64,000 nt of DNA from Candidatus Nomurabacteria bacterium (GCA_943359395.1 CALRHH010000003.1:24846-88845); one strand, 5' to 3'; shown: positions 1 through 22,776, counted from the stretch's first letter. Notes: generated from the sequence alone by a model not told the origin. Made by a program: numbers and translations.

Positions 1-48
1 GATTCAACGTGGATTTTAGGCACCTACTTCACGGCTCTCCGGGACGGC

Positions 49-843
49 ATGCCCCTCTTCCCCGATGCCCTCGCGGCACCCATCACGAACCTCGTCATCT
101 TCATGCAAGTAATCGGGAGTTGGTTCTTGCTCTCCAAAAGACGGGTGCTCCAACGGATGGCATTCTTGTACGCTCTCGCTTTTCATCTGTACTCCGGCGT
201 ATTCGTACTCTATTTTTATCCTTCAGTATCACTTCCTCCTGTACTTATCCTGTTCGGTGCCATGTACCGGCATACCCCGGTTCCATTCTCCAAAAAGACG
301 ATAGCCGGGTGGACTGTGATTGCGCTGGTCGCGATTTTCCAATTACTCGGTTTTACCGCTCCTGGTGACCGCCGGATGACACTCGAGGGGAATAAGTTCG
401 GTATGTTCATGTTCGAGGCGAACCACCAATGCATCGTTACGATCGGGACGTACAGTAAAAAAACTCCTAACGTGCGGCCGGATTGGGAAACCCCCGCGGG
501 GACACGGTGCCCAGGTTTCTTCTGCCTGGTCAAAACGACGACCAGTAAGACATCTGAAAATCTGTCGCTTCGCGAAGAGCGATACGAGTCGGGCACCGCA
601 TGGAACCGGTGCTACCCTTACGAATGGTGGTCCCGCCTCCACTCCCGCTGCGCACAAAACCAAAACATCGACCGGATTTCTCTCAAAATTGACCATTCGA
701 TTAACGGCGGGCCATTCTATCGCACCGTTGATGTGTCGGACATATGCGATGTACCCTATCATCCATTCGGTGGTAATACCTGGATTAAGGGGCCCCCGGA
801 AGCTCCTCTCATCGGGTACCCCGTCACGAACACGTATAACTAA
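49..843 (+). CDS. Membrane protein, function unknown; may be 5'-truncated at the window edge. Several hydrophobic helices N-terminally, hydrophilic Cys-containing C-terminal half.
   Basis: ORF translation shows multiple TM-like stretches (LVIFMQVIGSWFLL, FLYALAFHLYSGVFVLYFY, VLILFGAMY). The ORF begins 48 nt from the window edge, so the true start may lie upstream. Confidence 0.3.
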   Translation: MPLFPDALAAPITNLVIFMQVIGSWFLLSKRRVLQRMAFLYALAFHLYSGVFVLYFYPSVSLPPVLILFGAMYRHTPVPFSKKTIAGWTVIALVAIFQLLGFTAPGDRRMTLEGNKFGMFMFEANHQCIVTIGTYSKKTPNVRPDWETPAGTRCPGFFCLVKTTTSKTSENLSLREERYESGTAWNRCYPYEWWSRLHSRCAQNQNIDRISLKIDHSINGGPFYRTVDVSDICDVPYHPFGGNTWIKGPPEAPLIGYPVTNTYN

Positions 844-1020
844 TAAATCATATGGAAAACGGCACAACAACACTCATTGTCCTGAAAGAACTGGCTGGTA
901 ACCCGCCTCCCCACTTGAACGCCATCCAAGAATTGCTCGCGCCGCACGTCGGACTCCTTACGACACTCTGGATCTCCGTGTGGATAACGACAGCCGCCGT
1001 TCTCCTCGTACAACCCTGGC

Positions 1021-2730
1021 ATGCATACAAAGAACATAAGAATAACCAAAGCAATTAGTGAGCGCGGGAAGTACGAAGACTTGCGCGAGGCAATATCATC
1101 TACCGTATTCGTCCAAGCTGAAAAAGGTGCCGTTATCATCGGCTCTGAGCCCACAGGTGAGCGTAACCCGTGGATATTCGATTTCCGGGCACTTTTGCTG
1201 CAGTCGAAGTGGCTCGACAGATACGCGGAGATATTCTGGGAGCGTTATGCGTCGAATCCTCCATTCCAAGTAGGCGGTATCGAAACGGCTGGCATCGCAC
1301 TGGTCGCGGCAATCGTGATGAAAGGAGAGGAGCGCGGCACCCCAGTCAATGGTTTTTACATACGAAAGTCACGGAAGCGTCAGGGACTCGTGAAGTATAT
1401 TGAAGGCACGCTCAACGATTTGCCTATCGTCCTTGTCGACGACCTCATGAATTCGGGGCAAAGTATCGACAAAGGTATTGATATTCTTTCGCAAGAAGGG
1501 AAAAAAGTCACTGGCGTATTCGTCATCCTCGCCTTCCGTACAGATGATGCTTATGTGCATCTCAAAGAAAAAGGGGCTTCTCTTACACACCTGTTCACTC
1601 TCACCGATTTCGGTATGCCGCTTTTAAGATCGAAGGCGCCGGAAATTCCGGACGACTCTTTCGACGTCATGTGGCGCTACGCAGCACCGAACCCCAGCTA
1701 TCACCTCGTCGTACAAAAATCAGCCCCTGTTCTGGATGACGAAAGAGTCTTTCTTGGTTGCGACGACGGAACATTCCGGGCACTGAATCAAAAGACGGGG
1801 GAGATCGACTGGGAATTTTCTGTCGGCCACCATCCGCGAGGCAAAGGTATTCTCTCGTCCCCCACGCTTCACGAAGGCGTCGTCTACTTTGGCGCGTACG
1901 ACGGCGTCGTGTATGCGCTTGACGCGAAGACTGGGAAAAAGATATGGAGTTACGACGACGCCGATTGGATAGGCTCCTCACCCGACGTTGCCTCAGACCT
2001 CGGCCTCCTTTTCATCGGACTCGAATTCGGACTCTGGAGAAAACGGGGCGGCATTGCGGCGCTTGACCTAAAAACGGGAGTGCCGCGCTGGACTGCATAC
2101 CACACAGACTTAACGCACGGCTCCCCGCTCTACATCCCGGAAGAGTCCTTCGTAGTAATCGGGAGCAACGACGGTGCCTTGTATGCATACGATGCAAAGA
2201 CGGGTAGCTTGCGCTGGAAGTATCCGTCGCGGGGAGATATAAAAACGCGCCCGGCGTATGATACGAAACGACGTATTGTCATCTTCGGTTCAATGGATGG
2301 TACTCTCTACGTGCTCTCGGCGCGGGACGGCTCCCCTCTCTACGCCCGCGAGACCGGTGCCGGGATATATTCGACACCGCTCGTCCACGGCGACACCGTA
2401 TACGTCGCATCACTCGATAAATGTATCTATGCGATAAATAGTGTAAATTGGAAAGACCGCTGGGTGTATGAAACGAAAGGGCGCATCTTTGCCTCCCCGC
2501 TGATTACCGGCGATTCACTATGGATTGGTTCGAACGACGGCAGACTTTATGAGCTCAACCCCGATACCGGTACACTCAAACATTTCTTTCAAGCAACAGA
2601 GCGTATTGTAAACGCCGCCTGTTACAATGCCTCAACGAAAAGATTCTTTGTGCCAACTGTAGCGAACGAACTCTATTGTATCGAACGAAATAGCGGCGAC
2701 CGGACACTCATAGAGGCCTCTTCTATATAA
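1021..2730 (+). CDS. Fusion protein: N-terminal type I phosphoribosyltransferase domain (PRPP-binding loop VLVDDLMNSGQS) joined to a C-terminal PQQ-repeat beta-propeller.
   Basis: PRPP-binding signature V-L-V-D-D-x-x-x-S-G characteristic of type I PRTases (OPRT/APRT-like). Downstream are repeated ~40-aa units of form 'G.VYA.DAKTG...W' typical of PQQ/BamB-like propeller blades (at least 7 recognisable). Compound hairpin terminator directly follows. Confidence 0.6.
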   Translation: MHTKNIRITKAISERGKYEDLREAISSTVFVQAEKGAVIIGSEPTGERNPWIFDFRALLLQSKWLDRYAEIFWERYASNPPFQVGGIETAGIALVAAIVMKGEERGTPVNGFYIRKSRKRQGLVKYIEGTLNDLPIVLVDDLMNSGQSIDKGIDILSQEGKKVTGVFVILAFRTDDAYVHLKEKGASLTHLFTLTDFGMPLLRSKAPEIPDDSFDVMWRYAAPNPSYHLVVQKSAPVLDDERVFLGCDDGTFRALNQKTGEIDWEFSVGHHPRGKGILSSPTLHEGVVYFGAYDGVVYALDAKTGKKIWSYDDADWIGSSPDVASDLGLLFIGLEFGLWRKRGGIAALDLKTGVPRWTAYHTDLTHGSPLYIPEESFVVIGSNDGALYAYDAKTGSLRWKYPSRGDIKTRPAYDTKRRIVIFGSMDGTLYVLSARDGSPLYARETGAGIYSTPLVHGDTVYVASLDKCIYAINSVNWKDRWVYETKGRIFASPLITGDSLWIGSNDGRLYELNPDTGTLKHFFQATERIVNAACYNASTKRFFVPTVANELYCIERNSGDRTLIEASSI

Positions 2731-2821: not shown

Positions 2822-3052
2822 TTATTTCGGGAAAAACTGATTGCAGACCCCGGCACCATGCTTCTTGATGTTGTAACCGAGCTTCCGCCGGTTGTCCAGG
2901 CACTCGGCCCGGGTTCTCGGCAGCGGCAGAACCATCGTCTTCCCGTCGATCGTCGTCCGGGTAATGAACTGCCCCCGCTGGGCTTCAGCCGAGGAGACGG
3001 AGGCCGCCGCGAGCAGCACGCCCGCAACGGCAATCTTCAACAATGTCTTCAT
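2822..3052 (-). CDS. Small secreted protein (76 aa) with N-terminal signal peptide and basic ~55-aa mature region with two Cys. Last gene downstream of the ligase operon.
   Basis: N-terminus MKTLLKIAVAGVLLAAASVSSAEA is a classical Sec signal peptide with AxA cleavage site. Sits immediately downstream, same strand, of the 3146-9540 operon and is followed by a terminator hairpin. Confidence 0.4.
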   Translation of the reverse strand: MKTLLKIAVAGVLLAAASVSSAEAQRGQFITRTTIDGKTMVLPLPRTRAECLDNRRKLGYNIKKHGAGVCNQFFPK

Positions 3053-3145: not shown

Positions 3146-4453
3146 TCAAGCCCCGCCCCTCACCTGGCCCGCCCCGGGACGCGTGCTTTCGTCGATCACT
3201 ATCCTGCTTTTGCCCCGGGGAGCTAATGGAATATTTTCGACAATCTCCACGCCGACGCGCACATCCTTCCCTACGAGTTTTCCGAGGCTTTCTTTTACGC
3301 GCTCTTCCACACCGGCGTAAAATGCCGGGCCCGGGATGATGCGCGCTACGATTTCGCCGTCAGACTTCTTTGCAATCTGATACTGGAAGATGTAATTCAT
3401 AAAACCGTCCATCGCGCCGTCAAACTCGAGATGATGAATCCGGCGTGCGGGAAACGTGAGGTATGCGGAGTAGCGTCCCTTAATCCACAGACGGGGCGAA
3501 CGCAATCCGCAAGCACATGGCTCATAAGAAATCCTTCCGCGATCCCCCGTATCGTATCTGATAAAGGGCATGCCATAGTTTAAAAGGTCAGTGGCGATGA
3601 TTTTTCCTTCCACGCCCGGCGAAGCCTCCGCATACGAATCGTCCGTAATTTCGATAATGACCGATTCCGTATTCACATGAAAGCCGTCATGCCGGGCACA
3701 CTCCACTCCGACGACACCTATTTCCTCGAGACCATAGCGGTCATATATTTCACAACCCAGAGTATCTTCGACAAACCTGCGTACCGACGGAAAAAGCATC
3801 TCCCCGAACGAAAGTACGAATCGCAATTCGGGACGCGGAAGCGCCGGATTCTTTGAAACGAGCCGGGACATTTCAAGCAAAATTGACGGGTATGCTGACA
3901 AGACTTCAGCCTTAAAGGCCGCCATTCGCGCAAGCGCCTGCCTCGGATTGCTCAGAAACTCTCCGACGGGGACAAAAAGGTGCGACTCACTCGACAAGCC
4001 CCGTATCTTAATGCGGACGATACGTACTGTGGCGAGACTGCTGAGCGGCTCTCCGCGCCACCAGAGAAAACGGAATGAGGCAAAATCGATGTATTTGTCG
4101 ATGACGGCTTCTTCACTCATGAGAAACCGGAAGGGCGTACCGGCAGTCCCCGACGTAACGTACCAAAATGAATGCACGGCCTGACTACTGTCAATGTATT
4201 CTTCCGGCATTTTCCCTTCGAATGTCCGCTTACTCGTGACGGGGAGGCGGGACATGTCCGCAAGAGAACGGATGGAGTCCGGCTCTATCCCCTTTTCCCT
4301 GAGGAAAGTGCGCCAAAGCGGAACATGCAGATAGGCATGCCGGAGAAGTTTCCGCATGTGTTTCTCTTGCCATCGTTTTTGTGCCGAGGGGGAGCGTCTG
4401 TGCAAAACGCAAAATCGTGCGAACGCAAAACGTTCTGTGATTCGACGTATCAT
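3146..4453 (-). CDS. Adenylate-forming enzyme of the phenylacetate-CoA ligase (PaaK) / CapK / coenzyme F390 synthetase family.
   Basis: Motif YVTSGTAGTPFRF matches the P-loop-like AMP-binding motif of PaaK-family ligases (consensus xSGTTGxP). Size (~435 aa) and overall architecture are typical. Overlaps the upstream paralog by 4 nt (translational coupling). Confidence 0.6.
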   Translation of the reverse strand: MIRRITERFAFARFCVLHRRSPSAQKRWQEKHMRKLLRHAYLHVPLWRTFLREKGIEPDSIRSLADMSRLPVTSKRTFEGKMPEEYIDSSQAVHSFWYVTSGTAGTPFRFLMSEEAVIDKYIDFASFRFLWWRGEPLSSLATVRIVRIKIRGLSSESHLFVPVGEFLSNPRQALARMAAFKAEVLSAYPSILLEMSRLVSKNPALPRPELRFVLSFGEMLFPSVRRFVEDTLGCEIYDRYGLEEIGVVGVECARHDGFHVNTESVIIEITDDSYAEASPGVEGKIIATDLLNYGMPFIRYDTGDRGRISYEPCACGLRSPRLWIKGRYSAYLTFPARRIHHLEFDGAMDGFMNYIFQYQIAKKSDGEIVARIIPGPAFYAGVEERVKESLGKLVGKDVRVGVEIVENIPLAPRGKSRIVIDESTRPGAGQVRGGA

Positions 4454-5802
4454 GATTTATTTTCAAAATCTCTAATGAAGTATACGGCTTTCCCGCTCTT
4501 CGCCTCAGGGATGGTACCAGTGAGCTCCCACTGTATCCGCACACGGGGGTGCAGGAGCCTCACCATGAGCGCATCAAGAGATTCTTTATGCGCGTCAAAG
4601 GAAGAGCCGGGCACAACCTTCATGACAAAAGAAACTTTGCCCGTCTGGATTATCTGATATTGACGGATAGAGTCCCTGTAAGAACCCAGCGCGTACGCGA
4701 TATCGAGTAACGAGACAGTACGACTATCCTCGAGTTCGATGAGTTCAGTGGTCCTGCCCTTGAAGGTCAGCGTACGGAGTGTCCGGCCACACGCGCAGAG
4801 AGAATCCGTCATGACGCCGGTATCTCCGATTTCATAGCGGATGAAAGGCATCACGCGGTTGTCAAATGTCGTGACGAGAATACGGCCCTCGCGCCCTGGA
4901 GGCAGCGGGAGATTATTCTCGTCCACGACCTCGACGTACGCCCACTCTTCGCTTATGTGCATGTTGTGAAGCTCACATTCATATCCCAAGAATCCCACCT
5001 CCCGCGATGCGTAGAGCGTGAAGAGTTCTGTTTTCATGACACGTTCTACATACGCGCGGTCTGATTCCGTAAGGTGCTCCCCCGCCACCATAGCCACGCG
5101 CACCGGGAGTTCTATTCCGAGTTTCTCCATTTGCCGCGCGAGTTCAACGACCCAGGACGTGTATCCGTACAGTATAAAGCCCTTCCTGAGTTGACGTCCG
5201 AGTTCTTTAAAATCGTTCACCCGGTGCCGGATGCTGTTATATCCGCGGATATAGAACCACACGTGCCTGTAGAACGTGAACCCATTCCGGGGCCGTGCAC
5301 GCATGTACACGATGGGAAACCGTTTGCCTGTGCTGCGAAATATGCGTTCGGTCACGGCAAAACTCCGAAGAGAAGCATGCCAATCTTGAAGAAAGTGGAA
5401 GGGTTTCCCCGTTGATCCCGACGTATAATCGGGGTCGCTTTTGGCCAGAAGAGACGCGTCCGTAATATAGTCCATACGTTTCCCGACCAACGCTTTTTTC
5501 AGGGTGACGGGGAGTTTCGAGAGAATTTCCCGCGGTGACATTGAGGCATCTACCCCAGCTGTATTGAATACGTCTCTCCAGTAAGGAACATGAGTTACGT
5601 GGTGAAATAAATCTTTCAATCGCTCATCCTGAATCCTCTCAATACGCTCCCGTGACCAATACTGACTCTTCATCAACACGTACGTATCGAGAAAAAGAGG
5701 GATGTGCCTAAAAATACTTCTATATAAAAATTTGCTCGTCCAAATACGGTCGCTGCGCAAACCGTGTTTGAGTAAAATCGCTTCGCTCACGCTCGTAAAC
5801 AT
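4450..5802 (-). CDS. Second PaaK/CapK-family adenylate-forming ligase, paralogous to the downstream gene.
   Basis: Motif YTSGSTGKPFHF (AMP-binding loop of PaaK-like ligases). C-terminal 'RYEIGD' region resembles the PaaK C-terminal domain. ~450 aa. Confidence 0.6.
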   Translation of the reverse strand: MFTSVSEAILLKHGLRSDRIWTSKFLYRSIFRHIPLFLDTYVLMKSQYWSRERIERIQDERLKDLFHHVTHVPYWRDVFNTAGVDASMSPREILSKLPVTLKKALVGKRMDYITDASLLAKSDPDYTSGSTGKPFHFLQDWHASLRSFAVTERIFRSTGKRFPIVYMRARPRNGFTFYRHVWFYIRGYNSIRHRVNDFKELGRQLRKGFILYGYTSWVVELARQMEKLGIELPVRVAMVAGEHLTESDRAYVERVMKTELFTLYASREVGFLGYECELHNMHISEEWAYVEVVDENNLPLPPGREGRILVTTFDNRVMPFIRYEIGDTGVMTDSLCACGRTLRTLTFKGRTTELIELEDSRTVSLLDIAYALGSYRDSIRQYQIIQTGKVSFVMKVVPGSSFDAHKESLDALMVRLLHPRVRIQWELTGTIPEAKSGKAVYFIRDFENKS

Positions 5803-5854: not shown

Positions 5855-6742
5855 TCACTTCCTCAGCAATTGACGCTCTAATTCCGGTACCGAAATATTG
5901 CACTCCCTGTATTGTTCGTGAAATTTTTCTCTCAGCGCATTTCTTGATGCGTCAATCATAGGACGTATCCGTTCGTACCCATCGCGCTTATACCTGAGGG
6001 CAAGATTGGTCCAGACAGATTGATACACGATGCGTTTGAACGTGTACGCGTTACTCCAGTGCCTGAACAGGAGTTCGGGATTATTGAGGACAAAATCTAC
6101 GAGCGGCTGGCGCAGATACGAGAGACATAGCTCGGGTGTGCTGAAGTGAAAATACGGTTCGTGTGCAGTCGAATTATCCTTACACCATTCGAGCGGGATG
6201 GCATTACCGTTTGAAAATGGGAGGAAAAGGTCGGACCGAGTAATGACGGGTTTCGTACGATCTACGTCGTAGACCTGCTCGCCGCTGCAGAGCACCGCAT
6301 ACCCTCCCCTCTCCTCGACATGTTCCATGAGACGTATTTGTATATACCTGAAGGGGTGTACCGCGGGATATCGCTCATAGGCAGCAACGCCAGAAGAGAT
6401 GAAGGAGGTGATGTTCAGAGGAACTATTTCCTGGTGCACGCCACGATCACGGCACCACTGTGCAGCGTAGTGAATGTCGTGTTGATTGAGGCCGTCTTCA
6501 AATTCGAGCGTCAGTACGGAAAAAGGAATCTGCTGGTCGTAGAACGCCTGACACGCCACTTCGCTGTCTATTCCACCACTCGAACACACCCAAAGAGGTT
6601 TCTTGGCTTTATGAGCTATCGAATGCGCGGCGGTATATATTTCTTCCTTCCAAATTGCTGGCTCACGGCTACAGGGGGTAAAGCGGAGCGAGAATGCACC
6701 ATCCTTTTCTTTGCCTCCGGCTTCGAAAGTAAATGCGGTCAT
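5855..6742 (-). CDS. PP-loop ATP pyrophosphatase superfamily protein (adenine-nucleotide alpha-hydrolase fold; asparagine-synthetase-C-domain / QueC / TilS-like class).
   Basis: Canonical PP-loop SGGxDS present as VCSSGGIDSEV near the N-terminus. ~295 aa, too short to carry a glutaminase domain. 4-nt overlap with the upstream Cys-rich gene. Confidence 0.55.
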   Translation of the reverse strand: MTAFTFEAGGKEKDGAFSLRFTPCSREPAIWKEEIYTAAHSIAHKAKKPLWVCSSGGIDSEVACQAFYDQQIPFSVLTLEFEDGLNQHDIHYAAQWCRDRGVHQEIVPLNITSFISSGVAAYERYPAVHPFRYIQIRLMEHVEERGGYAVLCSGEQVYDVDRTKPVITRSDLFLPFSNGNAIPLEWCKDNSTAHEPYFHFSTPELCLSYLRQPLVDFVLNNPELLFRHWSNAYTFKRIVYQSVWTNLALRYKRDGYERIRPMIDASRNALREKFHEQYRECNISVPELERQLLRK

Positions 6743-7947
6743 GATGTACGGCTGAACGAACGAATTTGTTCCATAGGGTCAATACCGAGATTCCTCAGAC
6801 CTTGTTGGCATACGCCATCATCGCTTCCGCATATCTCCCGCATGCGTTCCATCGATGTTCCAATCCGATTTAGAAAAAAGAAGAGCCCTTGATAACAGAT
6901 GGTTCTCATGGGAACATCCGACATAGCGGCGCAATACAAGGCAAGTGGCTTCGTCCGATCTTCTGTCGCAACGGCAAGCTTGCCGATAATGCATGACGCT
7001 TCCGCCTGCCGGCTTCCGAGCCCCTGGCAGGACTTGACCGCGGCGGGTGTGTTCGTCAACACCAGGTAAGAACCACTAGACCCCATTCCGCTGAAACAAG
7101 CGGTTCGCGCCATAGCTTCCCCATACGATTCACACACGTTTTTCACAATTTCAAGCGACTGCGCTTCAGAAACGTCCTGCCGCCTGAGAGTGGCATAGAC
7201 CATCCGCGGGAAGTACCGGAAACAAGCGCGCATTTCGGGCAATGAGGGAAAATCGCAGAGGGAGCGCAGGGAATCCTTATCCGGATACTCGATGTCGGGC
7301 GGAGAAGTCATGCTTCTTGACGAGAGAATGTCGGCGTATTCCATCGTAACGCCGTTGTAACATTGATTGAGCATGGAGCCGGATACTTCTCGGCACACTG
7401 CAAATGCCGGCTCAAACTTCTGATATACTTGGAAAAGCGCATGCCCCACGCCATGGCAGGTCCCGATGTTTGTACATAGTCGCTTTCCGACTTTCCGCAA
7501 CTCATCCACGCTCATATGCGCGAGATTTAGTTTTTCGTAGTCTATCCCGAGTTCCTCGGCGAAAGCTCCCCCGATAATCCCGTGGATACAAGCTGAATCG
7601 CAGGCACGGTTGCACTGAGAGATTGCGGCTTCGACGTCGTGATACCTTGTATACATCTGTTGCCCGACAACGTGACCTACGTAATGGCACCACATCGGTC
7701 CAGAGCGGGCCGATAGTATATCCATGAGATCGGCGCCGCCCGTAAGCTCGAGCAGTTTTTTTATCTCAGGCCGGACACACGCCACCCCATCTTTTTCGCC
7801 GGCACAGGCCGATACGCCCGCGAGCGCGCTCCTGAATTTGTATGAAGGCCACCACTGATTGTAAAGAGATTTTGCTCCAAGAACTCCAAGGATTGCGGCG
7901 ACAATGACCAGTCCGAGCACAATCCCGCGCACATCAAAAAAACGCAT
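6739..7947 (-). CDS. Membrane-anchored (single N-terminal TM), strongly Cys-rich extracytoplasmic protein of unknown function with recurring C-x(n)-HG-[VI]-GH / C..G..G motifs.
   Basis: N-terminal helix IVLGLVIVAAILGVLGA. More than 20 Cys in ~370 extracytoplasmic residues. Repeated motifs WCHYVGHVVG, CHGVGHALFQ, CIHGIIGGAF, CFSGMGSSGS read directly from the translation. Confidence 0.45.
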   Translation of the reverse strand: MRFFDVRGIVLGLVIVAAILGVLGAKSLYNQWWPSYKFRSALAGVSACAGEKDGVACVRPEIKKLLELTGGADLMDILSARSGPMWCHYVGHVVGQQMYTRYHDVEAAISQCNRACDSACIHGIIGGAFAEELGIDYEKLNLAHMSVDELRKVGKRLCTNIGTCHGVGHALFQVYQKFEPAFAVCREVSGSMLNQCYNGVTMEYADILSSRSMTSPPDIEYPDKDSLRSLCDFPSLPEMRACFRYFPRMVYATLRRQDVSEAQSLEIVKNVCESYGEAMARTACFSGMGSSGSYLVLTNTPAAVKSCQGLGSRQAEASCIIGKLAVATEDRTKPLALYCAAMSDVPMRTICYQGLFFFLNRIGTSMERMREICGSDDGVCQQGLRNLGIDPMEQIRSFSRTS

Positions 7948-9142
7948 ACCTCATTGTACTCGACAAGCCAGATAGCGACCATCCGTTACTATTCAGGAAA
8001 TCCCTAAACGGCGGGTGGAGGGCGGACATTTGACTGAAACGGTCGTAGCTATACCAGCGGCCTTGAGTACCCGTCGGACCGGCGAGCATCGTTTCGCGCA
8101 TAAATGCAAAAAACGAATTTTTGTGTACATTCGGATGTGCTTCCATACGTTCAATCATTCTGTCCAGGTGTCCCCTAACCTCGGGTAGGCGTGCATCGCC
8201 GTCAATCGCATATATAAAAGTCGCCAGCGAGAAATCAGTATAGACGAGTCTTGCTTCTATCATGATATTCCCTTGCTCGTCCGCCGTCCGCCGCTCTTGG
8301 TAATAATCAAACACTTTTTGAAACGCCGCTTCCGCCTTGGGTAAATTCTCATGACGCACGAGAGCAATTGACGCATTCAAAAAACCTTGAAAATAATAGA
8401 AAGCCGGCGCCTGCACTTCCCAATACGGCCTCCCAAGAATCCTTTTTTCTTCTTCGGGAAACAGTATGTTCGTATCATCCAGGATTTTCTCAATCGACCG
8501 AATATGCCTATCCAAATTACTTGTCGAAAGTTTTTCTATCCCGTCAAAATGTTTGAATATACTTGTTGCATGCCAGATACCCACTTTAAAGTACGCGACG
8601 CTTGTCGGATATTTTGAGAGTGAATATTCGGCGAGGTTTTTCAACGATCCGACATCGTCACCCGGAATACGCAGCTCTCCGTACGGCTCACCTTTGAAAA
8701 TCTCGTCAATGAGCTGAGGTTCCATTGCGGTCGTTATGTATCCCAAGAGTCGATTGATGAGGAGTGCCTGATTGTAGGGGCTTCCCGGGTAAGTGAGTAA
8801 CTGCTCCTTCGTAAGGCGCACCGCCTCAAGTTGTTTTTGCATATCGCCGCCCCAGAAATCCGCGACGACAGTCGCGGTTATCGCCCGCTGTCCGGCAACG
8901 CTGCTTGTACCTGTCGTTTGGAGTATCTTTTGAGCACTTTCTTGTGTGGCGAGAAAATCCCCCTTCTCAGTTAAATCATAGGTAAGCTCAAGGTCGCGAG
9001 TGATTGTTGTTTGTGGGAGCCCGAAGAAAGTCCGGAACGTTGATTGCGGCGCCGTGAACTCATAGAGGATAAAAAGCGCGGCGCATAAGACGGCAGTTGC
9101 GATTACCGGTCCTGTAACGCTCGAGCGGGACATCATATTCAT
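7934..9142 (-). CDS. Membrane-anchored protein of unknown function (N-terminal TM GPVIATAVLCAALFILYEF, ~370-aa extracytoplasmic domain). Start set at the internal MNMMS Met whose ATG overlaps the upstream stop (ATGA).
   Basis: The long ORF (to 9229) begins with an Arg/Trp-rich stretch that is just the alternative-frame reading of the GGGDC-coding repeat. The Met at 9140-9142 forms an ATGA overlap with the stop of the upstream small gene, which is typical translational coupling. Confidence 0.45.
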   Translation of the reverse strand: MNMMSRSSVTGPVIATAVLCAALFILYEFTAPQSTFRTFFGLPQTTITRDLELTYDLTEKGDFLATQESAQKILQTTGTSSVAGQRAITATVVADFWGGDMQKQLEAVRLTKEQLLTYPGSPYNQALLINRLLGYITTAMEPQLIDEIFKGEPYGELRIPGDDVGSLKNLAEYSLSKYPTSVAYFKVGIWHATSIFKHFDGIEKLSTSNLDRHIRSIEKILDDTNILFPEEEKRILGRPYWEVQAPAFYYFQGFLNASIALVRHENLPKAEAAFQKVFDYYQERRTADEQGNIMIEARLVYTDFSLATFIYAIDGDARLPEVRGHLDRMIERMEAHPNVHKNSFFAFMRETMLAGPTGTQGRWYSYDRFSQMSALHPPFRDFLNSNGWSLSGLSSTMRYAFF

Positions 9143-9540
9143 GGACAATCGCCGCCGCCATCGCCACCGCCGCCACAATCGCCGCCGCCACAATCGCCGC
9201 CGCCATCGCCCCCACAACTGCCGCCACAATCTCCGCCGCCGCAGGCGGGTACCTCAGGGATTGGGGCGTCTGCATGGGCGATTCCAACTGTGTCGGATGC
9301 CCACGGAGAATACCCCGTCTTCGACGACGAGCCAAAGAGGACCAGAATGAACCCTATTGCCACAAGAAATACCGACGGAAGGTACCTTCCCGACGACTCC
9401 CCACCATTATGTGCATTTTCTGCGGTATCGTTATCGGACATAGAGTTTAATTGTTGCGCAACAATGCAACTATTGTACTCCTCCGTCCCGTCGCTGAAAA
9501 CAGGACGTGTGGATAAAAAGTGCGGGCCATCCGGACGCAT
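9139..9540 (-). CDS. Small membrane protein with one TM helix and a C-terminal Cys/Gly/Asp tail made of imperfect (GGGDC)n repeats. Alternative start at Met34 (ATG 9438-9440) would give ~100 aa.
   Basis: Translation ends ...PACGGGDCGGSCGGDGGGDCGGGDCGGGGDGGGDCP. TM segment YLPSVFLVAIGFILVLF. Encoded by a 15-nt tandem DNA repeat (ACAATCGCCGCCGCC, the reverse complement of GGC GGC GGC GAT TGT). First gene of the coupled operon. Confidence 0.45.
   Translation of the reverse strand: MRPDGPHFLSTRPVFSDGTEEYNSCIVAQQLNSMSDNDTAENAHNGGESSGRYLPSVFLVAIGFILVLFGSSSKTGYSPWASDTVGIAHADAPIPEVPACGGGDCGGSCGGDGGGDCGGGDCGGGGDGGGDCP
9145..9245. repeat. Imperfect 15-nt tandem repeat (~6 units) encoding the GGGDC pentapeptide repeat on the minus strand.
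   Basis: Units acaatcgccgccgcc / atcgccaccgccgcc read directly. Produces spurious Arg/His-rich ORFs in the other frames. Confidence 0.8.
9449..9464. promoter_or_regulatory. Perfect 16-bp palindrome ATTGTTGCGCAACAAT between the ArsR-family gene and the divergent operon. Candidate operator.
   Basis: Read directly. Lies 8 nt upstream of the Met34 ATG of the small GGGDC gene and ~115 bp from the ArsR start. ArsR/SmtB-family repressors typically bind imperfect 12-2-12 inverted repeats near their divergent targets. Confidence 0.35.
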
Positions 9541-9577
9541 TGCGAGAGCGCATAAATAGTTGCATACTTCAGAAACT

Positions 9578-9880
9578 ATGAAGATCCGTCGACCGCTCCC
9601 CCGCTCCGCCTATGAGAGGAACGCGGAAACGTACAAGATATTGGCAAATTCAAAACGTCTGGAGATTTTAAATTTGCTTCGCGAACAGGAAATGGCCGTG
9701 CAAGATTTAGTGAAGATTCTCAAAATATCGAAGGCAAATGTGTCCCAGCACTTAGCGTTGCTCCGCCACGAGAAGTTGGTCACGGTGCGGCGGAAAGGAT
9801 TGAATGCGTATTACAATATTGTGGACCCGCGGATAGTAGAACCGTGCCGTATTCTTTACCAGCTTTTCCAAAAATCGTAG
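9578..9880 (+). CDS. ArsR/SmtB-family winged-helix transcriptional regulator, divergent from the GGGDC-ligase operon.
   Basis: HTH region LANSKRLEILNLLREQEMAVQDLVKILKISKANVSQHLALLRHEKLVTVRRKG matches the ArsR family pattern (..R..IL..L...E..V.EL.......Q..VSHHL..L...GLV...R.G). The Cys/His metal-sensing motifs of metal-responsive members (ELCVCDL, DxHx10H) are absent. ATG at 9578 preferred over TTG at 9560. Confidence 0.7.
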   Translation: MKIRRPLPRSAYERNAETYKILANSKRLEILNLLREQEMAVQDLVKILKISKANVSQHLALLRHEKLVTVRRKGLNAYYNIVDPRIVEPCRILYQLFQKS

Positions 9881-11920: not shown

Positions 11921-13450
11921 ATGAAAAAAGATGCGCGTGTACTATTGGCGACACTCGCACTCATTGTCGCCGGCACTTTAGCGCTCAGTGCCCTTCCCGA
12001 AACGCGAGCGAAGCCCAATATAATTCTCATATCAATTGATAGTTTGCGACCCGACCATATGGGAATCTACGGATATTCACGGGAAACTACTCCGTACATT
12101 GACGCCTGGGCAAAAAACTCCGTCGTGCTCGATAACTATTTCGCCGCGGCGTACCTCACTCCCATTTCTGAAACGAGCGTCCACACGGGAAAGTACCCTT
12201 TTACAAACGGCGTCATTAATTTTGAATCCGGACTCTCAAGCGGAACACGCACGCTCGCAGAAATACTTCAAAACAACGGCTGGCAGACTGCCGCATTTGG
12301 CTCATCGCCTGAATTCAGCCGTGAGAGGCCGGCGTTGTTCCGGAATTTCTCGCGGGGATTTGACGTGTATGAGTTTGAAAAAAATGACGCGAATATAGCT
12401 TGGTATGGTAGAGGAAATTCGCCCGTTCCCGATGCTATCGCCTGGATGAATAAGACGGGGGGTTCGGGCGATAAACCTTTTTTTGTCTGGCTCGTCATCG
12501 GTAGTGCCCACTGGCCGTACGGCCAGGATGAGCCGGTGCATTTTAGCGACCCGGAATATGACGGATTCTTCAACGTACCCGCGAAGGCCTTCGAGAGTAC
12601 GTTGGCCGCGCTTTTCAACGGCCGCTACGGTCGTGTATACAACGGCGCTATGTACGACAACGGTAAAATAATCAAAAATGACGCATCGGCAGACCTCAAA
12701 TACATAGTCGACCGTTATGACGATGGCCTCGTCTCGACCGATCGGTCGCTGAAAAATCTTTTCGAATTTCTCAACATGCCGCAGATGCACAACACCATCG
12801 TAATCTTGCAATCGGAACACGGCGAAGACCTGGGAGATCGCGGCACTGTCGCCCATTACGATATTTCAGACGTCACCGTTCATGCGCCGCTCATCATACA
12901 AATGCCAGGGCTTCCCGCACATCGCTCCAGCACTCTCGTTTCAGGCGTTGACCTCGCGCCCACGCTCCTCAGCGCACTCAACCTCGACAGTGAAGCGGCC
13001 GGCATGGACGGAAAAAGCTTTTATCCATTTCTCTCCAGCTCCGAGGGCGTCTCGCGTACTGAAGTGTTTCTCGCCCGGACTCCGTTGTGGGAGAGAGTCA
13101 TTGCTCCACCCGAGCCTTGGCTCGCGCCATTCGTGGCGGAGGACAACATCGAACATTTCTACGATACGGGGATCCGGACGGACGATTGGAAGTTGATACA
13201 CCGGCTCGCGCGAGACGCTATCGCGCAATACTCTTGGTATGGACGTCTTACGGGTGTACCTGTTGTATTACCTGAATATCAGCTCTATGACCTCAAGAAC
13301 GACCCCGAAGAACGAAACGATGTCTATGACACACGTAAGAATGACAACGTGGTGAGTGCCTTGCGGGACAAATTGAACGCGTGGGAGAAAAAGATGAATG
13401 AGTCTTTGCCGAGCTATTCACCTCCTGAGCAAATACAGCCATACTTCTAA
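11921..13450 (+). CDS. Secreted/membrane-anchored sulfatase-family (alkaline-phosphatase superfamily) enzyme. Candidate phospho-transferase (LtaS/EptA/OpgB-like) rather than a true sulfatase.
   Basis: Signal peptide MKKDARVLLATLALIVAGTLALSA. N-terminal IDSLRPDHMGIYGY metal-binding start typical of PF00884-type enzymes. No clear C/S-x-P-x-R formylglycine motif around the TP...TG region. Confidence 0.6.
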   Translation: MKKDARVLLATLALIVAGTLALSALPETRAKPNIILISIDSLRPDHMGIYGYSRETTPYIDAWAKNSVVLDNYFAAAYLTPISETSVHTGKYPFTNGVINFESGLSSGTRTLAEILQNNGWQTAAFGSSPEFSRERPALFRNFSRGFDVYEFEKNDANIAWYGRGNSPVPDAIAWMNKTGGSGDKPFFVWLVIGSAHWPYGQDEPVHFSDPEYDGFFNVPAKAFESTLAALFNGRYGRVYNGAMYDNGKIIKNDASADLKYIVDRYDDGLVSTDRSLKNLFEFLNMPQMHNTIVILQSEHGEDLGDRGTVAHYDISDVTVHAPLIIQMPGLPAHRSSTLVSGVDLAPTLLSALNLDSEAAGMDGKSFYPFLSSSEGVSRTEVFLARTPLWERVIAPPEPWLAPFVAEDNIEHFYDTGIRTDDWKLIHRLARDAIAQYSWYGRLTGVPVVLPEYQLYDLKNDPEERNDVYDTRKNDNVVSALRDKLNAWEKKMNESLPSYSPPEQIQPYF

Positions 13451-13456
13451 CCTGCC

Positions 13457-14914
13457 GTGCTACGATGTGATTCCAATATGAAAACACGCAAAGCATATTC
13501 TCGCGGTTTTTCCGTCGCCTTCGGATTAGCGGCAGTTGCCCTCGTCGCAATTTTCATTTTTGTACTGACCCGGCCGGCGCAGCACCCTGCAGTATGTCCG
13601 GATTGTAATGTGATTATCGTTGGCATTGATACGCTCCGGGCGGACCGGGTGCACGCGTTTGGTTACCAGAGGGAAACGACGCCGAATCTCGACAAGCTCG
13701 CGACAAATGGATACGTCTTTACCAATGCCGTCTCCGCTTCCAGCTGGACCGTTCCGTCTTTCATGTCGATTATGACGAGCGTGTATCCGTCGGTTCACAA
13801 GGTGGTCAATAAATTTTCGACCTTCAATGCGAAAGAGAAGAAAATATCAAATCTCAAAGAACTCTCGCCGCAGATAACGACGCTTGCAGAGGCAATGAGA
13901 AAAGCCGGGTACGCAACCGGCGGATTCACGGGCGATGCCGGGGTTTCCGGTCAATTCGGATACAAAGAGGGGTTCGACGTGTACACCGACGAAAAAGCGT
14001 TCGGCGGCCTTTCAAACAGTGAGGGGCACGCGCTCGGATGGCTCGACTCGCTGCAAAAAGACAAGAAATTCCTCATGTTTTTCCACGGATACGATTTGCA
14101 CGGGCAGTTTGATATACCAATCGACCTGCAGCGCTTCGTTCCCTCAGGGTACCGAGGTTCGCACACCGGTTTGCATGACGACGAAGCGGCGTTGAGGGAG
14201 GCGCAGCTCCACGGACCGCTGTCTTACAACGACGCCGATGTGGAGTTCTGGAATGGTTTATATGACAGCAAGATCCGTGCGGCGGACGAACAACTGGGTC
14301 ATTTTCTCGCGGAGCTCGAAAAGCGCGACGTGCTCAAGAATACCGTAATCATCGTGCTTTCGGATCATGGCGAGGAGTGGTTTGAACACGGCGGCATCGA
14401 CCACGGCCATACACTCTACGATGAACTCGTCCATGTGCCGCTCGTCATACACGTACCCGGCGGCGGCACTGCATCAATACCTGGGCAAATTTCCACTATG
14501 GATGTGGCGCCGACAATCTTCGACATACTCGGCATCATTCCTGATGATGCGTTTAGGAAGCAGGCGTACGGTCAAAGCCTCGTACCTTATTTCTCCGGCA
14601 AAAAAGACGGCCGTGATGTATTCCTTGAGACGGACTACCGCGACGCTATTCATAAACGTGCCGTGCGCAGTGCAGATGGATGGAAATACATCCGTAACAT
14701 GGTGAACGGAGAGGAGGAACTCTACGATTTGAATGCTGATCCTGCGGAGAAACAAAATCTCATTTCATCAAGGCAGAAAAAAGCTGATGATTTGAAGGCA
14801 AAGCTCTTCGCGCACATCACGAATGACCTTCACGCCGACCCTGCGGCTCGTTTTGAAGTAGGGTGTCTGCCGGTCTATCCGACCGAATGTCTCGAGAAAG
14901 CCGTGCTGCAATAA
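13457..14914 (+). CDS. Second membrane-anchored sulfatase-family (alkaline-phosphatase superfamily) enzyme.
   Basis: TM anchor VAFGLAAVALVAIFIFVL. Then IVGIDTLRADRVHAFGY. Putative nucleophile region SSWTVPSFMS has Thr where sulfatases carry Cys/Ser and lacks the Arg of CxPxR, which fits LtaS/EptA-type transferases. Confidence 0.6.
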   Translation: MLRCDSNMKTRKAYSRGFSVAFGLAAVALVAIFIFVLTRPAQHPAVCPDCNVIIVGIDTLRADRVHAFGYQRETTPNLDKLATNGYVFTNAVSASSWTVPSFMSIMTSVYPSVHKVVNKFSTFNAKEKKISNLKELSPQITTLAEAMRKAGYATGGFTGDAGVSGQFGYKEGFDVYTDEKAFGGLSNSEGHALGWLDSLQKDKKFLMFFHGYDLHGQFDIPIDLQRFVPSGYRGSHTGLHDDEAALREAQLHGPLSYNDADVEFWNGLYDSKIRAADEQLGHFLAELEKRDVLKNTVIIVLSDHGEEWFEHGGIDHGHTLYDELVHVPLVIHVPGGGTASIPGQISTMDVAPTIFDILGIIPDDAFRKQAYGQSLVPYFSGKKDGRDVFLETDYRDAIHKRAVRSADGWKYIRNMVNGEEELYDLNADPAEKQNLISSRQKKADDLKAKLFAHITNDLHADPAARFEVGCLPVYPTECLEKAVLQ

Positions 14915-22062: not shown

Positions 22063-22776
22063 ATGATCGGTAAGTGGGCTGGAATTCTCGTACTAACTGC
22101 AGCTACGGGATTTATCTTGTATTTCGAGAATGCGACGCTTCGTCCCCAGCCGCAGACACTCACCGCGCAGGCAGCGGGCGCACAGTCAAAGTATGATACC
22201 AAAGCAGCTGATTCACAGTGCCCCCAGCCAAGCGAGACAGCTGGATACAATAAAGACGTAGCTTTTGATGCTGTGTATGAGGATTGTGGTGTCACGCCCC
22301 CGCCAGAGCATACGGGGCAAACTGCCTCAGCTGTCCTCGCCGTGAATTGTCCGAAAAAGAGGAATCTCTATGGTAAGCCTTGCGTGGGTGATTTTATCAA
22401 AGCGTCTTGCAGTAAGCCCAATTTCTGCGATGGTCAGATGCCGAAATCTGAGTGCTACAACGGCAAGGAATGGGTGAAGAAGTGCGAAGTGACAAAAGTG
22501 GCTGGGGCAGAAATCACCAAACCATTCGACGTTGCTGCCACGGGCGACTTAGCGGGCGTAAAAGCCCCTGTAACGCCAAAAGTACCGACGCCGCCAATTC
22601 AAGGAGACACAATCAAAGCCGCATACAGCACAGATGAATTAAGTGCCGCCGCGCGCAAGGCTCCCGCCGCAACAAGAATAGAACCTACTATCCAGGCACC
22701 TGCAGCACCTGCAGCACCTGCATCCCCAGCGCCTGTAGCGCCGGCTGGTCCAGCGCTCAGTCCAGACTCGATTTAG
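22063..22776 (+). CDS. Membrane-anchored extracellular protein with a Cys-rich middle domain (10 Cys) and a Pro/Ala-rich C-terminus.
   Basis: TM WAGILVLTAATGFILYF. Cys-rich region then PAAPAAPASPAPVAPAGPA tail. Upstream TTGCAA…TGGATAAT promoter-like hexamers. Confidence 0.35.
   Translation: MIGKWAGILVLTAATGFILYFENATLRPQPQTLTAQAAGAQSKYDTKAADSQCPQPSETAGYNKDVAFDAVYEDCGVTPPPEHTGQTASAVLAVNCPKKRNLYGKPCVGDFIKASCSKPNFCDGQMPKSECYNGKEWVKKCEVTKVAGAEITKPFDVAATGDLAGVKAPVTPKVPTPPIQGDTIKAAYSTDELSAAARKAPAATRIEPTIQAPAAPAAPASPAPVAPAGPALSPDSI

Follow-up and report, generated by a model that had tools for sequence, protein, structure and literature searches.

The 64,000-nt stretch of DNA analyzed here (the window; Candidatus Nomurabacteria bacterium, GCA_943359395.1, CALRHH010000003.1:24846-88845) encodes a small protein that ends in regularly spaced cysteines among glycines and aspartates, which raises the question whether this is a real gene and, if so, what its tail serves. 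The ORF described from the sequence alone (9139..9540, 133 aa) is present on the minus strand, with the C-terminus ...GGGDCGGGDCGGGGDGGGDCP exactly as claimed, and the hydrophobic (membrane) segment was confirmed (mean Kyte-Doolittle value 2.22 over 19 residues). As had also been stated, the gene is the first of an operon that includes the ligase genes, and its stop codon TGA (9141-9139) overlaps the next start codon ATG (9142-9140) as ATGA. The small ORF was confirmed as a real gene; the coding frame of the tail was borne out by homologues that keep architecture and tail in the same frame.

Two starts, Met1 and Met34, had been considered. The true start is most likely Met34, which yields a protein of 100 aa. 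The homologues P0002, L094, L096 and L097 begin at the equivalent of Met34, and in L007 an in-frame stop is located 17 codons upstream of that position, so that the frame opens only there. A start at Met1 was rejected on account of these relatives, the stop in L007 and the position of the promoter-like site, which lies downstream of Met1. The extension Met1-Ser33 is not conserved among relatives and is probably untranslated. Four parts make up the protein: the N-terminus is short and followed by a hydrophobic helix, after which a linker that closes with G(V/I)AHADAP leads to the Gly/Asp/Cys tail of 43 aa (20 Gly, 7 Asp, 6 Cys, 1 Ser). Neither Pfam nor NCBIfam gave a match to it. The positions of all features are shown in Table 1.

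Table 1. Features of the small-gene locus and of the adjoining operon, in window coordinates
Feature	Position	Strand	Remark
457-aa polytopic membrane protein after SagB, C-terminal part	1..843	+	HMM E = 2e-89
68-aa TM protein, YcaO-SagB operon	852..1058	+	homologous 68-aa gene in L008
Phosphoribosyltransferase-like domain plus PQQ/BamB-like beta-propeller, 569 aa, last gene of the YcaO-SagB operon	1021..2730	+	Pfam
PaaK/CapK-like adenylate-forming ligase 2	3146..4453	-	NF045666 3e-42, PF00501
PaaK/CapK/F390-synthetase-like adenylate-forming ligase 1	4450..5802	-	NF045666 1e-31, below cut-off
PP-loop / asparagine-synthase-like ATPase, 295 aa, accessory	5855..6742	-	weak PF00733 match
Cys-rich membrane-anchored protein, 402 aa, accessory	6739..7947	-	
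Partner protein (402 aa), all-alpha TPR-like solenoid preceded by a TM helix at the N-terminus	7934..9142	-	
Small gene, Met34 start, TGA stop, putative precursor/substrate peptide, 100 aa	9139..9441	-	
Tail DAPIPEVPACGGGDCGGSCGGDGGGDCGGGDCGGGGDGGGDCP, 43 aa, putative core peptide	9142..9270	-	
15-nt repeat region, unit GGCGGCGGCGATTGT	9145..9240	-	
Junction motif G-I-A-H-A-D-A-P between leader part and low-complexity tail, family-defining	9262..9285	-	
Single hydrophobic TM / signal-anchor segment LPSVFLVAIGFILVLFGSS	9325..9381	-	residues 21-39 from Met34, Kyte-Doolittle
ORF extension Met1-Ser33, with promoter-like site and operator-like boxes	9442..9540	-	
Operator-like elements: perfect 16-nt palindrome ATTGTTGCGCAACAAT (9450-9465) and box AATAGTTGCAT (9464-9474, minus strand)	9450..9474		
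Promoter of the small-gene operon, sigma-70-like (TTTTCA and TACAAT separated by 17 nt)	9472..9500	-	
Second AATAGTTGCAT copy, before the ArsR-family gene	9555..9565	+	
Divergent ArsR/SmtB-family HTH regulator, 100 aa	9578..9880	+	

A profile search of 1.84 billion representatives (E<=1e-3) yielded 264 family hits, nearly all of 75-125 aa and matched over their full length. The family is large and confined to Patescibacteria; it is uncurated and present in no curated protein-family library, and for 13 members and the window protein NCBIfam gave no match, TIGR03601 included. Members start with a basic N-terminus, followed by one TM helix, the motif (V/I)AHAD(A/V)P and finally a tail of Gly, Asp, Ser and Cys. 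That the ORF is a chance frame, with the gene of the 402-aa partner protein as the true first gene and a GC-rich simple repeat in front of it that opens the frame, was regarded as extremely improbable and is effectively refuted by these homologues. While GC-rich low-complexity repeats do open several frames at once (e.g., 9141-9350(+) and 7934-9229(-)), all 264 are homologous cluster representatives of equal length and architecture with the motif in the same frame; position and ATGA coupling are conserved, as is the promoter-like site, and relatives keep the peptide period with different codons.

A hydrophobic segment is present in 147 of 153 family members, and the N-terminal flank of the helix is more positive than the C-terminal flank in 144 of the 153, predicting that the tail is outside. 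The N-terminus of the window protein itself is acidic, so that the topology prediction for this member is ambiguous. The AHA|D motif follows 12-25 residues past the helix; its columns A55, H56, A57, D58 and P60 are invariant or nearly so, with AHAD in 90, AYAD in 16 and ANAD in 7 of 137 members. Regarding the tails (137 members), the sum of Cys, Ser and Thr has a median of 10 and is never zero, whereas the number of Cys ranges from 0 to 14, with 0-1 Cys in 34 tails and none in 11. In most cases Cys is preceded by G, S, D or A; a small residue before Cys is a known context for azole synthetases. A Hint autoprocessing domain is found at the C-terminus of some members, which points to processing or attachment of their C-end.

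The family is closely associated with genes for YcaO and a SagB-type dehydrogenase. Regarding the 47 YcaO genes of the close clade, taken from contigs of one genome per species, 43 had enough upstream sequence; a family ORF was adjacent and divergent in 36 of these, elsewhere in the locus in five and absent in two. Among the more distant YcaO genes, 21 had enough sequence; 20 of these, nearly all labelled as other phyla, had no family ORF, and the sole exception was a second Kaiserbacteria copy. The genes of P0003, P0006 and P0011 are divergent and directly beside YcaO, which is followed by a nitroreductase-fold gene; that of P0013 is divergent from the YcaO operon, with a beta-propeller gene between. 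Paralogous copies of the whole module occur in L016, L017, L032 and L048. The best NCBIfam match of YcaO was TIGR03604 (SagD type), with 202 and 194 bits slightly under the cut-off of 219, and the reductase matched TIGR03605 (SagB) with 119 and 99 bits (cut-off 78; L003 and L012). YcaO carries an N-terminal region of ~100 aa without family assignment, and in L012 a polytopic membrane protein is encoded between YcaO and SagB.

Neither YcaO nor SagB was found within the 64-kb window (tblastn and clade HMMs, all six-frame ORFs). A contig of a second assembly (L014), which shares 99.95% identity with the window along 9211 nt (window position 1 corresponds to L014 position 1824), places the start of the 457-aa protein gene, SagB and YcaO 0.5-2.7 kb to the left of the window. 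The gene order in L014 is YcaO (a C-terminal fragment of 179 aa, HMM 265 bits), SagB (351 bits to the clade HMM), 457-aa membrane protein, 68-aa protein and beta-propeller protein. This operon is convergent with the small-gene operon, and the small gene lies ~10 kb from YcaO in this genome and is not adjacent to it. The beta-propeller protein (family HMM E = 1e-270) has a homologue in most YcaO loci. A secreted PQQ-type beta-propeller protein was considered and rejected, as the sequence has no signal peptide and starts with a PRPP-binding-like motif, which indicates a cytoplasmic protein.

The best explanation, with a probability of about 0.6, is that the small protein is a LAP/TOMM-type RiPP precursor with a membrane-targeting leader, the Cys residues of which would be converted to thiazoles. 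Among the roles offered by the sequence-only reading, that of a substrate for Cys-directed post-translational modification is the one supported, as the family adjoins SagD-type YcaO and SagB, and both are encoded in the adjacent convergent operon. As in LAP systems, the short gene is clustered with YcaO (36/43 at the family level, in the adjoining operon here), a SagB-type FMN dehydrogenase is part of the cluster, and a conserved N-terminal leader precedes a Cys/Ser/Thr-rich C-terminal core. The E1-like or RRE-containing C protein of such systems was not detected among the cluster proteins (NCBIfam, Pfam). The missing partner weakens the LAP assignment but is compatible with it, as some YcaOs form azolines without a partner. 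It is also unusual for a LAP leader to contain a TM helix. Further points against the assignment are the distance between the small gene and YcaO in this genome, the YcaO scores slightly under the TIGR03604 cut-off and the 11 of 137 family tails that lack Cys. Neither a peptidase nor an ABC transporter was found among the recurrent cluster genes.

The small-gene operon is tightly packed, with overlaps of 4, 14, 4 and 4 nt. In nearly every family locus examined, a partner gene is located directly after the small gene, and the partner is regarded as obligatory; translation of the two appears to be coupled via the ATGA overlap. The predicted structure of the partner (AF2 pLDDT 85, pTM 0.82) has its best PDB matches among TPR solenoids, with weak scores. 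For the partner, the Cys-rich 402-aa protein and the 457-aa membrane protein, Pfam and NCBIfam gave no match. Homologues of the Cys-rich protein were found in clusters L016, L023, L028 and L030, and homologues of the PP-loop ATPase (47-49% identity) in clusters L017, L023 and L028. The last two genes of the operon encode PaaK/CapK-like adenylate-forming ligases; homologues of ligase 1 adjoin YcaO-SagB in L042, L028 and L050, and those of ligase 2 occur in L042, L028, L050 and L071. In L017, L023, L028, L042 and L050, homologues of the PP-loop, ligase and Cys-rich genes adjoin YcaO-SagB or are at most a few kb away from it.

According to the precursor reading, transcription would start, as predicted, near position 9465 from the sigma-70-like promoter, which is overlapped by operator-like boxes and would be controlled by the divergent ArsR-family repressor, and the small protein would be co-translated with its membrane-anchored TPR-like partner through the ATGA overlap. 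In the cytoplasm, the ATP-dependent SagD-type YcaO cyclodehydratase and the SagB-type FMN dehydrogenase would heterocyclise X-Cys, possibly also X-Ser, of the tail to thiazol(in)es and oxazol(in)es; carboxylates may be modified further by the co-transcribed PP-loop ATPase and the pair of adenylating, PaaK-like ligases. The hydrophobic N-terminal segment would carry the tail across the membrane or anchor it in the membrane (the predicted topology of most members is N-in, tail-out), with the AHA|D junction as a candidate processing site. Hydrophobic leader and AHA|D motif together suggest export and processing by the general pathway.

The loci of the nearest relatives of the window pair, from the subfamily with tails ending in ...CP, count against the precursor reading and bear on a different explanation. 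In L094, which is part of a complete 859-kb Kaiserbacteria genome (CP066682.1), no YcaO or SagB was found within 10 kb on either side; none was found in L096 in 10 kb on one side and 6.5 kb on the other, and both are absent from the 16.8 kb of sequence of L097. The pair of small protein and partner can therefore exist without nearby azole machinery. It is conceivable, albeit unlikely, that the two form an autonomous envelope module, with the flexible, acidic, Gly-rich tail ending in Cys-Pro located outside the membrane and bound or handled by the partner; modification by YcaO/SagB would be an optional decoration in some lineages and possibly leave the protein of the window untouched. The partner follows the small gene nearly always, whereas YcaO is not always present, and the three relatives that have no YcaO/SagB in 16.8-21 kb have tails with 1-2 Cys. 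The flank charges (144 of 153 members) predict an outside tail, the fold modelled for the partner is a peptide-binding one, and the Hint domain at the C-end of some members fits as well. Points against this explanation are the small gene being adjacent and divergent at 36 of 43 clade YcaO genes, duplications that copy the whole set, and the YcaO-SagB genes retained in the adjoining operon of the window's genome, where the tail has gained Cys (6, compared with 1-2 in the relatives without nearby YcaO).

LAP clusters in CPR genomes have already been reported in 2020, 110 of them in 93 genomes, 51 Parcubacteria (Sharrar et al. 2020, mBio, PMC7298704). They consist of YcaO, an adjacent nitroreductase-fold dehydrogenase and, beside YcaO, a putative precursor of ~84 aa with Ser and Cys as the proposed sites (PMC7298704). 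Layout and phyla are the same as in the small-protein family. To judge by its text, that paper does not define a family of precursors and mentions neither a membrane helix nor an AHADxP motif, and no regulator, ligases or TPR-like partner; the definition of the presumed precursor family and its partner are added here. Compared with these clusters, the window locus is rearranged, its precursor operon being convergent with YcaO and not divergent, and it additionally contains the ArsR-type regulator, two PaaK-like ligases and the PP-loop ATPase. A peptidase was looked for in vain.

Heterocycloanthracin/sonorensin of Bacillus (TIGR03601) is a putative thiazole-forming TOMM precursor (Haft 2009, PMC2674419). 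Like that of the small protein, its low-complexity core repeats a short Cys-containing unit; the Bacillus core varies between strains, with whole-unit indels. It is likewise encoded away from its maturation operon. Its unit is Cys-Xaa-Xaa, whereas that of the small protein has five residues, and there is no sequence relationship; the Bacillus precursors have no TM helix, and the partner set is different. In the streptolysin S operon (sagA-sagBCD) a small precursor is followed by the SagB dehydrogenase and SagD (YcaO), and the best NCBIfam models here are likewise SagD and SagB. No homologue of SagC (E1-like) was found, its place being taken at some loci, e.g., L012, by a polytopic membrane protein, and the core composition is quite different. 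In microcin B17, scattered Cys and Ser of the Gly-rich core of McbA are converted to thiazoles and oxazoles by McbBCD, with a YcaO cyclodehydratase and an FMN dehydrogenase. McbA resembles the small protein in its Gly-rich core and in the small residues that precede cyclised Cys or Ser. Its leader is soluble and recognised by the E1-like scaffold McbB, and an ABC transporter exports it, whereas the leader of the small protein is hydrophobic, Asp is abundant, and neither an E1-like protein nor an ABC exporter was found in the clusters. The microcin B17 system has been reviewed (PMC4603692).

Bufferins are MNIO-modified RiPP metallophores with precursors of 80-120 aa and an N-terminal Sec signal (PMC11626156). 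Their Cys are converted to heterocycles in the cytoplasm, followed by export through the general pathway, and the heterocycles bind copper (PMC11626156). Bufferins use MNIO/DUF692 and DUF2063, the small-gene cluster YcaO/SagB; no Pfam match to MNIO (DUF692), DUF2063, DUF2282 or BUF_6/12Cys was found in the operon proteins or the precursor. In its mature form a bufferin is a small folded protein; the tail described here is of low complexity and without family match. Cleavage of the bufferin signal takes place close to the helix, at a canonical site, whereas AHA|D is located 12-25 residues past the helix in the small-protein family.

Regarding the control region, one promoter-like site was found (0.1 expected), and its -10 element is kept in relatives (TATAAT in L007, TACAAT in L094). 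The box AATAGTTGCAT at 9464-9474 overlaps the -10 element; this 11-mer occurs in exactly two copies in 64 kb (0.03 expected), and the second is conserved in L007. The regulator scores 52 bits with PF01022 (cut-off 22) and 84 bits with NF033788 (cut-off 55), which places it in the winged-helix ArsR fold. The divergent pairing of regulator and small gene is also found in L007 (98.6% identity) and L094, and ArsR is joined to the small-gene locus in only three of ~60 loci examined.

Metal binding, another role put forward by the sequence-only reading, would mean that the unmodified Cys/Asp/Gly tail, fixed to the membrane by its anchor, acts as a metallothionein-like or metal-buffering module and that a metal-sensing ArsR/SmtB repressor controls its expression. 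The tail does offer thiolate and carboxylate ligands at regular spacing, but no metallothionein or other Pfam/NCBIfam match was obtained, and many family tails have 0-1 Cys (34 of 137). By its NF033788 match (84 bits) the regulator falls into the ArsR/SmtB metalloregulator subfamily, and operator-like boxes precede both genes; inspection of the window and L094 orthologues against motifs known from the literature nevertheless revealed neither the alpha3 CxC nor the alpha5 D/H/H/E site, and the two share one conserved Cys (EPCRIL), with no His pair in the last helix. The dominant association is with YcaO/SagB, and ArsR occurs at three loci only; this role was considered weak and very unlikely. 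The copper-binding heterocycles of bufferins (PMC11626156) indicate that a modified tail could chelate as well. A metallothionein was rejected as the main explanation in view of the family Cys count of 0 to 14, the lack of a Pfam match and the lack of Cys-X-Cys or Cys-Cys clusters conserved across the family.

The YcaO/SagB system is widespread in Patescibacteria and barely studied. The genomes of Patescibacteria are tiny, yet many devote at least 10 kb to the YcaO/small-protein system, sometimes in two or three copies, so the system probably matters for their lifestyle. The presumed precursors can now be defined by TM helix, AHADxP motif and G/D/S/C tail. Should heterocyclisation of the tail be followed by export through the general pathway, the system would be the YcaO-type counterpart of the Sec-exported bufferins and a rare case of a membrane-anchored RiPP. 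A speculative extension, possible but on the improbable side, is that the family represents a membrane-tethered, heterocyclised, polyanionic surface peptide, not a diffusible antibiotic, with a hypervariable repeat core for metal capture or host-cell contact. The peptide would be part of a conserved apparatus with the TPR-like partner, a second TPR protein, the polytopic membrane protein and the cytoplasmic PRT/beta-propeller protein, occasionally joined by adenylating ligases or a Hint autoprocessing domain, i.e., a RiPP pathway co-opted for a surface structure of episymbionts. For the question whether azole formation is essential or decorative, the loci with small protein and partner but without YcaO close by provide a natural test.

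The repeat that encodes the tail was detected by TRF with a period of 15 nt at 9145-9205 (4.1 copies, 78% matches, score 87). The unit GGCGGCGGCGATTGT (= GGGDC) is exact at 9145-9159, 9175-9189 and 9190-9204, has one mismatch at 9226-9240 and is absent elsewhere in 64 kb (0.01 matches expected by chance). The description as 'near-perfect' holds for the three exact units but is slightly generous, the remaining units being degenerate. Phase variation, which had also been proposed, is ruled out: a 15-nt unit inside the coding region changes the length in frame only and provides no on/off switch. A phase-variable contingency locus was rejected because the unit is a multiple of 3 and is not located in the promoter. 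Variability in length and sequence is plausible and was seen in part. The differences between L014 and the window are confined to the repeat (5 substitutions, at 9166, 9174, 9179, 9187 and 9194), and in-frame indels distinguish relatives; over the 70 nt that L014 covers, no difference in copy number was seen. Three public contigs terminate within the repeat. Two metagenome scans, one with an exact 29-mer at the tail/partner junction and one with the partner alignment, gave no match and no further repeat alleles. L007 keeps the peptide period with different codons, and the close relatives L094, L096 and L097 have one terminal G(D/G)CP unit with 1-2 Cys. As part of the precursor reading, the (GGGDC)n DNA repeat is a recent in-frame tandem expansion of a conserved C-terminal unit GGGDC-P that multiplies the modifiable Cys sites; the core is the fastest-changing part of the locus and evolves through tandem duplication of short units. 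By-product ORFs of the repeat are an Arg-rich frame at 9141-9350(+) and a TTG extension of 7934-9229(-).

The open reading frame with a Cys/Gly/Asp C-terminus described in the sequence-only reading is present on the minus strand and ends in ACGGGDCGGSCGGDGGGDCGGGDCGGGGDGGGDCP. As also described there, its stop overlaps the next start, and it is the first gene of a ligase operon. The TGA and the downstream ATG share ATGA; the partner gene follows, and then four more genes (overlaps of 14, 4 and 4 nt and one 52-nt gap), the last two encoding PaaK/CapK-like adenylate-forming ligases. Regarding the start codon, left open between Met1 and Met34, the nearest homologue, P0002 of locus L007 (59% identity), and the genes of loci L094, L096 and L097 all start at the Met34 equivalent, and the L007 reading frame opens only 17 codons 5' of it. 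Together with a promoter-like site between the two codons, this favours Met34, and we infer a protein of 100 aa.

The -10 element of that site is kept in relatives (TATAAT in L007, TACAAT in L094). The 64-kb window holds two copies of the 11-mer AATAGTTGCAT (0.03 expected), one before each of the two divergent genes. These boxes and the palindrome ATTGTTGCGCAACAAT are candidate operators of the divergently encoded ArsR-family regulator; L007 conserves them, and L094 does so in part. The regulator is divergently paired with the small gene in L007 (98.6% identical) and L094 as well, and it probably controls both promoters. To the right of the regulator lie two tandem sulfatase-family genes and a gene for a DctP-type solute-binding protein.

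Features of the window discussed in the text
Feature	Position	Strand	Remark
Small gene	9139..9540	minus	133 aa from Met1
Sigma-70-like site TTTTCA, 17 nt, TACAAT	9500-9472	minus	between Met1 and Met34
11-mer box, copy 1	9464-9474	minus	overlaps -10
11-mer box, copy 2	9555-9565	plus	precedes divergent gene
Perfect 16-nt palindrome	9450-9465		between -10 box and Met34 start
ArsR/SmtB-family regulator	9578-9880		divergent to small gene
15-nt period	9145-9205		4.1 copies, 78% matches
15-nt unit, exact	9145-9159, 9175-9189, 9190-9204
15-nt unit, one mismatch	9226-9240
Partner gene	7934..9142	minus	402 aa
Cys-rich protein	6739-7947	minus	402 aa, membrane-anchored
Polytopic membrane protein	1-843, continuing left (L014:1293-2666)	plus	457 aa, Cys-rich C-terminal part; after SagB
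Beta-propeller protein	1021-2730	plus	'PQQ/BamB-like'
Secreted-looking protein	2822-3052	minus	76 aa, 2 Cys
Promoter-like site TTGACT, 18 nt, TATAAT	3149-3120		of the 76-aa gene
Two sulfatase-family genes	11921-14914	plus	tandem
DctP-type solute-binding protein	15098-16132	minus
tRNA-Cys(GCA)	22664-22740	minus	sole tRNA of the window

Word-indexed searches for relatives of the small protein yielded 3 and then 14 sequences; a profile search against all cluster representatives raised this to 264 matches (E ≤ 1e-3), nearly all of them 75-125 aa long and matching end-to-end. Members consist of a basic N-terminus, one hydrophobic helix, a 12-25-residue linker, a motif and a low-complexity tail. The helix was found in 147 of 153 members (19-residue window, mean Kyte-Doolittle of at least 1.6), and the N-terminal flank was more positive than the C-terminal flank in 144 of the 153; the window protein is one of three members with the less positive N-flank, and its charge distribution indicates no clear topology. 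The motif is (V/I)A(H/Y/N)AD(A/V)P, with the AHAD form in 90 of 137 members. The tails contain 34% Gly, 16% Asp, 16% Ser and 10% Cys, with a median of 3 Cys (range 0-14) and of 10 Cys, Ser and Thr combined, the latter sum being zero in none. Neither the window protein nor 13 other members matched Pfam or NCBIfam models.

Family proteins with a TM helix, an A-x-AD motif and a G/D/S/C- or S/Y-rich tail are fused C-terminally to a Hint/intein-like autoprocessing domain (Pfam PF05203, 33 bits; PF07591, 36.8 bits; both above cut-off) in two Patescibacteria loci (L061:9059-9769 and L065:8956-9801, minus strand), which suggests that in these members the tail C-terminus is released or transferred via a thioester. 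Two others (L055:8842-9645 and L071:8732-9604, minus strand) combine the family N-part with a short Pro/Gly/Ser/Cys tail and a conserved ~200-aa domain without Pfam match.

At the loci of the homologues P0003, P0006, P0011 and P0013 the small gene precedes a partner homologue and a TPR-protein gene (4/4). It is divergent from YcaO, with a nitroreductase-fold gene next after YcaO, in the first three, and divergent from a YcaO/nitroreductase operon with a beta-propeller gene between in the fourth. The YcaOs had TIGR03604 (SagD-type thiazole/oxazole maturase) as best model, with 202 and 194 bits just below the cut-off of 219, and the reductases matched TIGR03605 (SagB dehydrogenase) with 119 and 99 bits (cut-off 78). 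A YcaO-alignment scan of one genome per species yielded 78 loci, the closest labelled nearly all Patescibacteria (Parcubacteria/Paceibacterota, Kaiserbacteria, Nomurabacteria, Adlerbacteria and others). Purpose-built HMMs were applied to these loci. Of 47 close-clade YcaO genes, 43 had enough upstream sequence; a family ORF was divergent and adjacent in 36 of them, elsewhere in the locus in five and absent in two. Among more distant YcaO genes, nearly all labelled as other phyla, it was absent in 20 of 21 with enough sequence, the sole exception being a second Kaiserbacteria copy. In duplicated systems (L016, L017, L032, L048) the small gene, partner and YcaO were copied together, with SagB as well in L016 and L032; single very small genomes hold two or three paralogous module copies inside ~20 kb. 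YcaO and SagB were absent from the 16.8-21 kb examined per locus in L094, L096 and L097, and the clusters yielded no E1-like/RRE partner, no peptidase and no ABC exporter.

The 64-kb window itself holds neither YcaO nor SagB. Its first 843 nt match a polytopic membrane protein found alongside YcaO-SagB at other loci (E = 2e-89), and the gene at 1021-2730 matches the beta-propeller protein of YcaO-SagB operons (E = 1e-270). Over 9211 nt the window is matched at 99.95% identity by L014, a contig from a second assembly that reaches 1.8 kb further left. Its genes are, in order, YcaO (C-terminal 179 aa), SagB, the membrane protein of 457 aa, one protein of 68 aa and the beta-propeller protein. This gene order places the azole machinery in a neighbouring operon that converges with that of the small gene; the cluster covers ~12.6 kb. 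The genes that share the small gene's operon recur as accessory members of the YcaO system: homologues of the Cys-rich 402-aa protein, a PP-loop ATPase and the two ligases were found across L016, L017, L023, L028, L030, L042 and L050, with the ligases immediately after SagB in L042.

The 457-aa protein has no family match; in L012 its homologue lies between YcaO and SagB, the sagC position of the streptolysin S operon. The N-terminal ~220 aa of the beta-propeller protein contain a PRPP-binding-like motif (IVLVDDLMNSGQS; Pfam Pribosyltran, E = 3e-4, below cut-off). Because of this phosphoribosyltransferase-like start and the lack of a signal peptide it is taken to be cytoplasmic, a PRT-like plus beta-propeller fusion inside a RiPP-type operon. 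The Cys-rich protein has about nine C-x-(H/Y/F/I)-G-x-G-type repeats (such as WCHYVGH, TCHGVGH and ACIHGIIG) and no Pfam or NCBIfam match; its homologues occur in the YcaO clusters of L016, L023, L028 and L030. The 76-aa gene, with its own strong promoter-like site, lies between the two convergent operons; a similar Cys-containing secreted protein, 88 aa long, is encoded near the cluster of L008. The partner carries an N-terminal TM helix; its body is predicted with confidence to be all-alpha (pLDDT 85, pTM 0.82). The top PDB hits for it are TPR solenoids binding extended peptides (Pins/LGN, LapB, PEX5, Tom70, NprR), all weak (E at least 0.012, TM 0.3-0.4), and it is read as a putative membrane-anchored TPR-like scaffold.

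The small protein is probably (about 60%, all proposed steps included) the precursor or substrate in a pathway of LAP/TOMM type. In it, YcaO and SagB would convert X-Cys, perhaps also X-Ser, of the tail to thiazoles and oxazoles; more speculatively, the PP-loop ATPase and ligases may modify carboxylates. By analogy with the Sec signal of bufferins (PMC11626156), the hydrophobic N-part would carry the product to the membrane or across it, and AHA|D is a candidate processing site. Caveats to this reading are the negative results above for L094, L096 and L097 and for an E1-like/RRE partner, peptidase or ABC exporter, and the window protein's ambiguous charge distribution. The putative Gly-rich Cys/Ser core resembles that of microcin B17. 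This kind of system is already known, since LAP clusters with YcaO, nitroreductase and a ~84-aa putative precursor beside YcaO were reported from CPR bacteria (110 clusters in 93 genomes; PMC7298704). As far as found, earlier publications neither define the precursor family nor describe its AHADxP motif and membrane helix, its obligatory TPR-like partner, the ligases and PP-loop ATPase as an accessory set, or the rearranged, ArsR-controlled layout of this locus.

Tandem Repeats Finder recovered the 15-nt repeat in the tail, although 'near-perfect', as it had been called, is slightly generous: the unit GGCGGCGGCGATTGT (Gly-Gly-Gly-Asp-Cys) occurs in three exact copies and one with a mismatch. 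It is found nowhere else in the 64-kb window (0.01 chance matches expected). In the nearest subfamily, tails end in G-(D/G)-C-P, with one Cys in L094 (...GDGGGDCP) and L097 ((GGE)5-GDCP), two in L096 (...GGSSGCP), four in L007 and six in the window. Three of the window's units are identical in their codons and seem to have arisen by recent tandem expansion of the terminal GGGDC. L007 retains the peptide period with different codons, which indicates that selection acts on the peptide; other members have short periods of their own (DCAS/DCAP in L042, GGE in L097). Phase variation in the sense of on/off switching is ruled out, because a 15-nt unit allows in-frame length change only.

Over the 9211 nt compared, the window and L014 differ at five sites, all within 9166-9194 (two Asp-to-Val, one Gly-to-Cys, two synonymous). 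Every public contig with an identical partner gene stops inside the repeat (L001:1-70 = window 9142-9211; L002:1-27 = window 9142-9168), and the furthest-reaching differs from the window in the repeat only. This pattern fits local hypervariability of the repeat, comparable to the repeat-driven variability of heterocycloanthracin (PMC2674419), with contig-end errors as a possible alternative source.
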